Sequence record: PZ583738.1
Length of the DNA stretch: 64,000 nt
Source: a phage
Direction: 5' to 3' (one strand)
The notes beneath the pieces were generated by a model. That model ran no database searches. It had not been told where the DNA came from and saw only the letters and a program-made list of their open reading frames with translations. This document shows positions 23,047-24,500 of the stretch, in pieces; position 1 is the stretch's first letter; each line of letters begins with the position of its first letter. A program made the position numbers and the translations under genes.

Positions 23047-23379
23047 ATGAACATCAAAACTTACAACGAGTTTTTAGCCGAATCCGCCATCAATGAGACC
23101 AAATCAATTGATGATAGTGAAGGCTCTCTGAAATTTGGTTTAACCAAAAACGCAGATGGTGTTTTCTTTCAGATTGGTAATGAACGTTTTCAAACGTCCA
23201 AATATTCCAAAGCTGCAGTTGAAGCTGTCCTGAAATCTGGTGGCAAGTGGAAAGGCAAAGAAGGTACTAAAGAAATTGGTATCGCTGTTGACGGTGGTAT
23301 GGCTTATTTTAAAATTGGCGATGAACAATTTATTATGTCTGCTCGCGGACGTAAAGAACTGGCAAAACTTTATAAATAA
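23047..23379 (+). CDS. internal-protein-like small protein with capsid-targeting-type N-terminus
   Basis: 110 aa; N-terminus MNIKTYNEFLAES resembles T4 internal protein CTS (MKTYQEF..AEA) ending in L-x-E; internal tandem duplication of a FxIGxExF segment. Confidence 0.5.
   Translation: MNIKTYNEFLAESAINETKSIDDSEGSLKFGLTKNADGVFFQIGNERFQTSKYSKAAVEAVLKSGGKWKGKEGTKEIGIAVDGGMAYFKIGDEQFIMSARGRKELAKLYK
23371..23378 (+). promoter_or_regulatory. T4-type late promoter (TATAAATA)
   Basis: Exact TATAAATA 10 nt upstream of ATG 23388. Confidence 0.4.
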
Positions 23380-23387
23380 GGTTTCTT

Positions 23388-23660
23388 ATGAAAACTTTCA
23401 ATGAATTTTTCAACGAGTCACAATTGAATGAAGAAGTAAAAATTAGTAAAGCAGTCAAATCTATGATTGACAATATCAATCACCTGTATAGCATTGACTT
23501 GACTGACCATATAACAATTGGTAACAAACGCAACTTTTTCGCGTTTGACATTTCAGAACTTGACCAGAACCAAATTAATAACATTGAGCGTTTTGCCAAT
23601 GACAAGGGTCTCCGCCATGAGACAGCTGGTTATAAAAAATATGCAATTTATCTTAAATAA
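23388..23660 (+). CDS. internal-protein-like small protein (CTS-like N-terminus)
   Basis: 90 aa; N-terminus MKTFNEFFNES. Confidence 0.5.
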   Translation: MKTFNEFFNESQLNEEVKISKAVKSMIDNINHLYSIDLTDHITIGNKRNFFAFDISELDQNQINNIERFANDKGLRHETAGYKKYAIYLK

Positions 23661-23668
23661 GGCTTCAA

Positions 23669-23911
23669 ATGAAAACTTATCAAACATTTATAACAGAATC
23701 TTCCCATAGTATGGAAGTTAAACTTGGTCAAGCCCTTGCTGAAGCAGAGCGCCTGTTTGCACGTATCAAAGAACTTGCCGATTCTGTAGATGCATCATCT
23801 TTTAAAGGCGACCAGGGTAAAGTTAAAGCTCTCCTTGCTCTTTGTTCAGACGCGGGTGAAATTGCTAAGAACGGCACCAAGATGAAAAAACGCCTAGAAG
23901 ATTTAAAATAA
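23669..23911 (+). CDS. internal-protein-like small protein (CTS-like N-terminus)
   Basis: 80 aa; N-terminus MKTYQTFITES. Confidence 0.55.
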   Translation: MKTYQTFITESSHSMEVKLGQALAEAERLFARIKELADSVDASSFKGDQGKVKALLALCSDAGEIAKNGTKMKKRLEDLK

Positions 23912-23947
23912 GTGTACATGATGGGATAACTGTAGTATGATTATCCC
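23912..23947 (+). promoter_or_regulatory. early promoter with stem-loop (PeSL-like cassette)
   Basis: -35 GTGTAC, -10 TATGAT 18 nt later, inverted repeat GGGATAA..TTATCCC enclosing the -10. Confidence 0.55.
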
Positions 23948-23966
23948 ATCAACTACTGGAGACCAC

Positions 23967-24221
23967 ATGAAAACTTATCAAGAATTTATTACTGAATCTG
24001 CAAATGCAAAAGTTGAGTTTGCTTATGTTGGTTCGCCGCGTGGCAGTTTTTCCAATGAGGAATTCCGTCGTTCACTGGACAACTTTATGCAGTTAAGTGC
24101 TGAAGTATCGCATGATGGTCGTTATGACATCGTTACTATTAGCGGTTCTGAAGACCTTATCAAAAAGTGGTACAAGCAGAAAGATGTTGAGATGCGTTAC
24201 TATCGTATCCCTAAAAAATAA
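23967..24221 (+). CDS. internal-protein-like small protein (CTS N-terminus)
   Basis: 84 aa from ATG 23967; N-terminus MKTYQEFITES; track start 23937 is a non-ATG extension. Confidence 0.6.
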   Translation: MKTYQEFITESANAKVEFAYVGSPRGSFSNEEFRRSLDNFMQLSAEVSHDGRYDIVTISGSEDLIKKWYKQKDVEMRYYRIPKK

Positions 24222-24256
24222 GTGTACTTTTAAATGGGATAGTGTATAATTATCCC
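24222..24256 (+). promoter_or_regulatory. early promoter with stem-loop (PeSL-like cassette)
   Basis: -35 GTGTAC, -10 TATAAT, inverted repeat GGGATA..TATCCC; conserved leader CATCAACTACTGAGG. Confidence 0.55.
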
Positions 24257-24278
24257 ATCAACTACTGAGGGCCAAAAA

Positions 24279-24500
24279 ATGAAAACTTATCAAGAATTTA
24301 TTAACGAAGCTAAAATGCATGACGAATTGCCGATTCAATCTAAAACTTTTGATGGTACACTGAAGGATTTTAAAAAGTTACCAAATGATAAATTGGCAAA
24401 ACTTACAGGTTCTGTATCTGAAACAGGTGGTAAGGTTACTTTCTCTGCCCGTGGTATTGTCAACCTTAAAAAACTTTTGAAAGCCGTTGGTGCTGAATAA
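24279..24500 (+). CDS. internal-protein-like small protein (CTS N-terminus)
   Basis: 73 aa; N-terminus MKTYQEFINEA. Confidence 0.6.
   Translation: MKTYQEFINEAKMHDELPIQSKTFDGTLKDFKKLPNDKLAKLTGSVSETGGKVTFSARGIVNLKKLLKAVGAE

Follow-up and report, generated by a model that had tools for sequence, protein, structure and literature searches.

The 64,000-nucleotide stretch of phage DNA analysed here (sequence record PZ583738.1; called the window in the following, always at its full length) carries eight small genes whose products are probably internal proteins (IPs) of the T4 type, a group that would be packaged into the head, processed by the prohead protease gp21 and injected into the host. That each of these proteins has an anti-defence role is suggested by our analysis with somewhat less confidence. 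An earlier sequence-only reading had proposed eight open reading frames (ORFs) with MKTYQEF-type starts as IPs bearing a capsid targeting sequence (CTS) and as candidate injected anti-defence effectors. All eight are present with such starts on the + strand, and the proposal fits the evidence from sequence, synteny and protein families and coincides with the published view. The genes are named here by their start coordinates, and the leader given for each is its N-terminal CTS or CTS-like segment (pI, isoelectric point).

23047-23379, + strand: w23047, 110 aa; leader MNIKTYNEFLAE, with two extra N-terminal residues; predicted mature protein of ~98 aa, pI 9.3.
23388-23660, + strand: w23388, 90 aa; leader MKTFNEFFNE (F8); predicted mature pI 6.8.
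23669-23911, + strand: w23669, 80 aa; leader MKTYQTFITE.
23967-24221, + strand: w23967, 84 aa; leader MKTYQEFITE; Ip6-like.
24279-24500, + strand: w24279, 73 aa; leader MKTYQEFINE; predicted mature protein of 6.8 kDa, pI 9.8.
26649-27032, + strand: w26649, 127 aa; long, IPI-like leader MLTYAEFLNRNTITE, predicted to be cut before S; predicted mature protein of ~112 aa, pI 10.1.
36566-36835, + strand: w36566, 89 aa; leader MKTYQEFLAE; at the position of T4 ipIII/ipII, between e and denV.
37356-37655, + strand: w37356, 99 aa; leader MLTYKEFITE; immediately after denV.

The N-termini of the eight proteins were compared directly with the starts of T4 IPI, IPII and IPIII, and the comparison bears out the match to the T4 CTS that had been suggested. 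As read from NC_000866, T4 IPII and IPIII begin with MKTYQEFIAE and T4 IPI with MKTFKEFTSTTTPVSTITE. Leaders of w23669, w23967, w24279, w36566 and w37356 match MKTYQEFIAE at seven to nine of the ten residues, and those of w23047, w23388 and w26649 at five or six. A regular expression for the motif gave eight matches in the six-frame translation of the window, all eight at ORF starts, and none in 200 shuffles of the sequence; the observation is therefore real and far from chance. Work on the CTS of IPIII has linked head targeting chiefly to residues 4 and 7, and cutting by gp21 to residues 8 and 10 (PMC9026906). All eight window proteins have Y or F at the first of these targeting positions and F at the second (shifted by two residues in w23047), and the processing residues, I/L at position 8 and E at position 10, are found in six of them, all except w23388 and w26649. 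The cleavage motif (I/L)-x-E is thus canonical at positions 8-10 in six leaders, while w26649 has I-T-E at positions 13-15, the counterpart of an I-T-E at positions 17-19 in T4 IPI. The leader of w23388 carries a non-canonical F-N-E, and cleavage of this protein by gp21 is uncertain. Within families the leaders are invariant while the mature parts diverge to ~50-70% identity. A 36-nt leader sequence was found 2234 times in 1014 phage records by blastn, a search that undercounts CTS copies (1-5 per genome) and gives only a rough guide to the spread of the leader.

Such a widespread nucleotide sequence could be recombination homology, and the first ~30 nt of the genes are A/T-rich and similar between cassettes. 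On this evidence the shared 5′ end might be conserved as nucleic acid, as a signal for translation initiation or recombination, with no role as a peptide signal. However, the conserved leader residues are encoded by differing synonymous codons across the genes (ACT/ACG/ACA, TAT/TAC, ATT/ATC/ATA and GAA/GAG), which argues for selection on the leader peptide. Moreover, the variable positions coincide with positions 2, 5 and 9, at which T4 allows substitutions, and the first ten residues of IPIII suffice to direct foreign proteins into heads (PMC9026906, PMC3012670). Roles as nucleic acid and as peptide are in any case compatible and not exclusive, and an explanation that dispenses with the peptide appears very improbable to us.

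The genomic position of the eight genes also supports their identification as IP genes. The window is Gaprivervirus DNA: in region 22500-27100 its identity is 97.7% to Escherichia phage DK-13 (Straboviridae, Tevenvirinae, Gaprivervirus) and 96.4% to Yersinia phage vB_YenM_P8 (P8). The gene order is gp3, gp1, 57A (22295), 57B (22531), the five leader genes, trna.4-like and trna.3-like genes, tRNA-Met and tRNA-Arg (26004-26156) and w26649, and further downstream e lysozyme (36068), w36566, denV (36891) and w37356. The anchors in T4 are 57B-ipI-trna.4 and e-ipIII-ipII-denV (NC_000866). Five of the eight genes hence follow 57B directly, w26649 is part of the same variable region, 490 nt beyond tRNA-Arg, w36566 falls between e and denV, and w37356 comes directly after denV. 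By gene order, the set corresponds to both classical T4 ip loci plus one extra gene past the tRNAs and one extra past denV. The genes for the protease and the core proteins were read from DK-13, the 97.7% identical relative, and not from the window itself; DK-13 is annotated with gp21 protease, gp22, gp67 and gp68 (20995-23172), all four lying outside the window, as well as with Alt.

A CTS-like N-terminus ending in I-x-E is also seen in T4 gp61.1 (54 aa, beginning MKTFKEFIKEDMVAGDSGGNP; L013 4967-5131, - strand; outside the window) and in its DK-13 orthologue (beginning MKTFKDFINE; MT611523 107166-107333, - strand). It may be that gp61.1 is a further small capsid-targeted peptide, which would make it the fourth in T4 and the ninth in this lineage.

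Six of the eight proteins belong to PHROGs that carry the name internal head protein or internal virion protein (7673, 3499, 8111, 8765 twice and 2667). Among the cassettes after 57B, w23388 matches phrog_7673 (‘internal head protein’, E = 2.5e-56) and its orthologue is labelled ip9 in VR25 and VR26; w23669 matches phrog_3499 (‘internal head protein’, E = 6.6e-41) and its orthologue is labelled ip5, similar to RB51 Ip5, in VR26; w23967 matches phrog_8111 (‘internal virion protein’, E = 1.9e-13) and is 41% identical to Ip6 of VR25 and VR26; and w24279 matches phrog_8765 (‘internal virion protein’, E = 1.3e-20) and is labelled ‘internal head protein’ in DK-13 and P8. An upstream ATG at 23937 was considered as the start of w23967 and rejected, as it falls inside a promoter/hairpin element. 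The ATG at 23967 is taken as the true start because GGAG lies 7 nt upstream of it and the Ip6 homologue also begins with MKTYQEF. At the e/denV locus, w36566 matches phrog_8765 (E = 2.6e-37), and its family comprises 13 homologue clusters, all starting with MKTYxEF(I/L/M)xE. The neighbouring w37356 matches phrog_2667 (‘internal head protein’, E = 1.5e-41). Its DK-13 orthologue (MT611523 149257-149565) has the leader MKTYQEFITE and the same mature domain, so that positions 2 and 5, both tolerant, are the only ones at which the two leaders differ; the two genes also differ by an in-frame 9-nt indel, DK-13 having a repeat expansion (VDLVDL). Searches of Pfam, NCBIfam and PADLOC with all eight proteins gave nothing meaningful.

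The claim of an expanded repertoire stands as regards the eight genes, but its novelty was overstated, since six of the eight are in named PHROGs and Ip9, Ip5 and Ip6 are already annotated. Both the phenomenon and its loci were known before, as were most of the families, and variable ip sets are documented in T4 relatives. New are w23047 and w26649 as IP candidates, a PC4/Whirly-like prediction for w23047, and the presence of such an arsenal in a lineage without glucosylation of hydroxymethylcytosine (hmC). As for the mature domains, which had been described as unrelated, BLASTP of the leader-trimmed proteins is not significant (E > 0.01) and hhalign probabilities are at most 1.3%, in agreement with that description; its limit is that w24279 and w36566 both match phrog_8765. 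Smith-Waterman comparisons calibrated by shuffling among w23047, w36566, w24279 and SP18-Y reached no more than z = 1.8. A cross-match of w36566 to phrog_3966 was rejected as a sign of kinship and ascribed to the leader, because the trimmed comparisons show no homology.

The first of the two new candidates, w23047, is a member of phrog_3966 (unknown function) and is labelled ‘hypothetical’ in every record examined. Its family consists of 12 sequences down to 51% identity, all starting with (M)KTYxEF..E, in which K, T, Y, F and E are invariant. The internal duplication reported for one of the eight proteins was recovered in w23047 by our comparisons, its two halves aligning at z = 6.1 (0 of 2000 shuffles) and, at the level of the family, with an hhalign probability of 94% (E = 1.3e-7). 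The protein is modelled as a PC4/Whirly-like fold built from this tandem repeat, with two beta-beta-beta-beta-alpha units packed as an intramolecular dimer (predicted local distance difference test, pLDDT, 76.7; moderate confidence), and the model shares 8-13% sequence identity with its fold matches. A fold search of BFVD returned the protein's own orthologue alone at E < 0.001, and the family profile had no match among PDB sequences. We found no report of a PC4/Whirly fold in an injected phage protein in the searchable papers.

The second candidate, w26649, has no match in PHROG, Pfam, NCBIfam or PADLOC and none among PDB sequences. No more than 16 phage records contain it, each with an identity of 98% or higher, and in these it is called ‘hypothetical’, is not annotated or belongs to a record free of annotation; in none of the 16 is it called an internal protein. 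A search of 5.8 billion proteins placed it in a single cluster. An exhaustive HMMER search with the mature domain led to two remote homologues, namely P0014 (202 aa, on a T4-like contig), which has a CTS-like leader beginning MYTFKEFLVESELDLITE, and P0015 (125 aa), which has a CTS-like leader beginning MKSFKEFMLSE. Since these homologues carry CTS-like leaders, w26649 is a credible IP, of a family that has no such label in the records and libraries examined. The weak AlphaFold2 model of this protein (pLDDT 59.8) points to an SH3-like barrel followed by a C-terminal helix.

Comparison with DK-13 indicates that the genes are under purifying selection. Seven genes taken together differ from their DK-13 counterparts at 31 synonymous and 3 non-synonymous codons, and w26649 alone at 16 synonymous and 1 non-synonymous. 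A purine-rich ribosome-binding stretch is present 5-10 nt upstream of each start, being weak for w37356. The predicted mature proteins have masses of 6.8-11.6 kDa, and seven of the eight are basic, with pI values of 8.8-10.1; both size and pI lie within the range of T4 IPI*, IPII* and IPIII*.

This basic charge is also what would be expected if the proteins were packaged but served a mainly physical or structural role, such as neutralisation of DNA charge, packaging or ejection, head assembly or genome binding, instead of inhibiting host defences. At low salt T4 IPs are DNA-binding, and in IPIII mutants heads assemble more slowly and polyheads are more frequent (PMC9026906). Contacts between DNA phosphates and the lysines of T4 IPs have also been described (PMC3012670). 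The modelled PC4/Whirly fold of w23047 is of a nucleic-acid-binding type, and the barrel suggested with weak confidence for w26649 is of the chromo/Tudor/KOW type. However, a structural role leaves unexplained the eight unrelated folds, the fast turnover of cassettes in near-identical phages and the dispensability of the IPs in T4. Furthermore, all three T4 IPs have specific anti-restriction targets, Ip1, Ip2 and Ip3 each inhibiting a different GmrSD type IV restriction enzyme (PMC12373910). A mainly structural role for the eight proteins therefore seems unlikely, and we retain as more probable the view that they are IPs delivered to act against host defences.

Several points weigh against this view. 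Three of the leaders depart from the canonical form, w23047 by its two-residue N-terminal extension, w23388 by F8 and w26649 by R10. It could be that the canonical members alone are packaged and that these three proteins carry degenerate or relic leaders derived from cassette recombination, being themselves cytoplasmic or inactive. The annotation of w26649, which none of its records calls an IP, would agree with this. Against it, the leader of T4 IPI is likewise long and non-canonical and is cut behind an I-T-E in the manner open to w26649, and CTS-like leaders are kept in the remote homologues of w26649, just as the five invariant leader residues are kept throughout the w23047 family. In T4 an uncleavable leader still targets, and targeting relies mainly on residues 4 and 7 (PMC9026906). 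Strong purifying selection, at a synonymous to non-synonymous ratio of 16:1 for w26649, is likewise difficult to reconcile with a relic. We consider it quite unlikely that the three atypical members have lost packaging, and treat all eight as candidate IPs in what follows.

A further point on the negative side is that none of the eight proteins matches Ip1 (phrog_4363), Ip2 (phrog_7857) or Ip3 (phrog_5341), and the mature domains of the T4 IPs align with the family profiles of w23047 and w36566 at hhalign probabilities of at most 1.3%. BLASTP of the trimmed mature domains against the T4 IPs likewise stayed at E > 0.01. As none belongs to these families, no function transfers by homology and none of the eight is orthologous to an IP whose target is known. 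When Silas et al. examined ten further ip genes, no additional inhibition of GmrSD came to light (PMC12373910). The analogy with GmrSD is also affected by the chemistry of the phage DNA, for which the genome of the relative DK-13 and the 64-kb window were searched. T4 gp42 (dCMP hydroxymethylase), alpha-gt and beta-gt have no tblastn match at E <= 0.01 in the whole DK-13 genome or in the window, and T4 Dam has none at the same threshold in the whole DK-13 genome; gp56 is present in DK-13 by tblastn, and Alc, DenA and DenB are annotated there. A Pfam search for DNA-modification genes in ten neighbouring ORFs of the window showed only T4 accessory families. In agreement with this, Gapriverviruses have been described as being without any of the known modified-base enzymes, yet keeping genes that imply a non-canonical cytosine (PMC8056088), and the cytosines of VR7 DNA are reported to be modified but unglycosylated, with BREX restricting this phage strongly (PMC6326788). 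The modification of cytosine in Gaprivervirus appears to be made by enzymes other than the known ones. Since gp42, alpha-gt and beta-gt were not found in DK-13 and VR7 DNA is reported as unglycosylated, GmrSD enzymes specific for glucosyl-hmC are doubtful targets, and the targets are probably not those studied for T4. The accessible literature yielded no virion proteomics of VR7, JS98 or Gapriverviruses. Finally, the motif TATAAATA, which we take to be a putative late promoter by the T4 consensus, lies directly upstream of only two of the eight genes:

23371-23378, + strand: predicted late-promoter motif TATAAATA (T4 consensus), 10 nt upstream of w23388.
26610-26617, + strand: predicted late-promoter motif TATAAATA (T4 consensus), 32 nt upstream of w26649.

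Close relatives differ in their cassettes after 57B, five being present in the window, DK-13 and P8, four in VR25 and VR26, and three intact ones together with a pseudogene in SP18. In order from 57B these are:

The window, DK-13 and P8: w23047-type, Ip9, Ip5, Ip6-like, w24279.
VR26: w23047-type, Ip9, Ip5, Ip6.
VR25: w23047-type, Ip9, a 99-aa protein (beginning MQTFHEFLVE), Ip6.
SP18: w23047-type, Ip9, a pseudogene, a 92-aa protein.

The w24279 cassette is not at this locus in VR25, VR26 or SP18. The 99-aa protein of VR25 (L009 2353-2652) belongs to phrog_2667, the family of w37356, which indicates that one IP family can occupy either ip locus. The 92-aa protein of SP18 has the leader MKTYQEFINE (L010 2693-2971) and belongs to phrog_15565 (‘unknown function’). 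Coverage of the 4.6-kb region reaches 80% or more in only 8 of 862 matching phage records.

A repeated element resembling the PeSL (promoter-early stem-loop) cassettes of T4-type phages, which are mobile and regulatory (PMC2839356, PMC4122927), precedes four of the eight genes:

22986-23026, + strand: PeSL-like element upstream of w23047; GTGTAC-N17-TATTAT within a hairpin; -16.3 kcal/mol, z -2.4.
23912-23953, + strand: PeSL-like element upstream of w23967; GTGTAC...TAGTAT...TATCCCATCAAC hairpin; -17.3 kcal/mol, z -2.8.
24222-24262, + strand: PeSL-like element upstream of w24279, near-identical to that at 23912.
37296-37338, + strand: PeSL-like element upstream of w37356; z -2.7.

The common layout is GTGTAC, 16-18 nt and TAnnnT, with the -10 inside a hairpin ending in TATCCCATCAAC, and T4 ipI is preceded by a similar arrangement. 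Nine such elements lie on the + strand of the window against 0.68 +/- 0.83 expected, and their hairpins fold at z -1.6 to -2.8. The elements at 23912 and 24222 form direct repeats that flank the w23967 cassette. PeSL cassettes have been proposed to drive shuffling in the hyperplastic regions of T4-type phages (PMC4122927). By their layout the window elements match the published cassettes, and from this likeness they may act as promoters and take part in shuffling. A generic scan of 22500-27200 for sigma70 promoters and terminators gave nothing above chance, so that promoters are proposed here on the strength of the specific repeated element only. Further PeSL-like copies stand before other small genes on the + strand, at 32176, 39451, 47653, 58093 and 60114.

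Some neighbouring genes deserve comment. The P8 record calls the trna.4-like membrane protein (61 aa; window 24559-24744) a ‘prohead core protein’ and a DUF7338 protein (window 27119-27676; Pfam E = 8e-63) a ‘holin’. Both look mis-annotated; a T4-type holin t is located elsewhere in DK-13. At 45596-46606 the window has a 336-aa ORF with an RlaP domain (RNA repair pathway, DNA polymerase beta family nucleotidyltransferase; Pfam E = 1.3e-12), adjoining a y05I-like putative transcription factor at 44576-45136.

If the eight genes encode IPs, each protein as made would carry an N-terminal CTS of ~10-15 residues, (M)KTYxEF(I/L)xE, which would bind the gp22 scaffolding core so that the protein is built into the prohead, where gp21 would cut after (I/L)-x-E. 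The small, mostly basic mature proteins would remain in the head with the DNA, be ejected into the cell and act at once, ahead of any phage gene expression. Most probably they would inhibit, in a stoichiometric manner, the host nucleases by which the (modified) DNA is attacked on entry. That there are so many of these genes may be explained by cassette-like turnover at two or three hyperplastic loci, namely 57B-trna.4, the region past the tRNAs and e/denV, with the conserved leader-coding 5′ ends and the repeated PeSL-like elements supplying the homology for recombination.

For the assignment of targets to Ip families other than Ip1-3, which number more than ten when those found here are counted, the window provides eight defined candidates. 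The phage DNA is probably modified and not glucosylated, which would make the phage well suited to asking whether the IP system serves against GmrSD alone or delivers anti-defence proteins in general. It is tempting to go further and propose an IP arsenal retargeted from GmrSD, with at least w23047 as an injected, PC4/Whirly-like binder of single-stranded nucleic acid and w26649 as a further IP family with an IPI-style leader; this combination is speculative and we think it improbable as a whole. If it were true, w23047 would have as its target either the genome entering the cell or a defence that senses nucleic acids, and no internal protein has been described as acting in this way. In practical terms, IP content may help to predict the host range of therapeutic T4-like phages, and the leaders of the window could, like the T4 CTS, be used to load cargo into capsids.

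Among known systems, the published PeSL has a sigma70-like -35/-10 pair with the -10 in a stem-loop and is repeated before small variable genes, and the window elements are alike in these respects. They differ in the -35 hexamer, which is GTGTAC and not the TTTACW of the T4/PST consensus (TTTACW-N17-TAYWAT), and in a lineage-specific stem (GGGATA...TATCCC). The w23047 model shares its beta4-alpha-beta4-alpha topology and internal repeat with PC4-like/Whirly/PUR type I domains (MRP1/2, p24, Pur-alpha; PMC7549692), although its ~98 residues fall short of the ~150 aa usual for this fold. As to targets, the enzymes inhibited by T4 Ip1-3 attack glycosylated hmC, whereas the lineage of the window is without genes for hmC glucosylation, as seen in DK-13.

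The T4 IPs share with the window proteins the (I/L)-x-E cleavage motif and both genomic neighbourhoods (after 57B and around e/denV), and are comparable to them in size and basic charge. The promoter-hairpin layout found upstream of IP genes of the window also precedes T4 ipI. T4 has three ip genes, whereas the window has eight, with one beyond the tRNA genes and one beyond denV. T-even IPs have been described as diverse defence proteins with only the CTS in common (PMC3012670), and at least ten Ip types (Ip4-Ip13) are credited to Repoila et al. 1994 where that work is cited in PMC12373910 and PMC3012670. Unlike Ip5, Ip6 and Ip9, which are annotated in RB51, T6 and VR phages, w23047 and w26649 are unlabelled as IPs in the records examined. 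The other members of the 57B cluster are readily placed among the polymorphic ip cassettes of T-even phages, w23388 being Ip9, w23669 being Ip5 and w23967 a 41%-identical relative of Ip6, and those cassettes are swapped between close relatives at the same variable locus, as is the case here.

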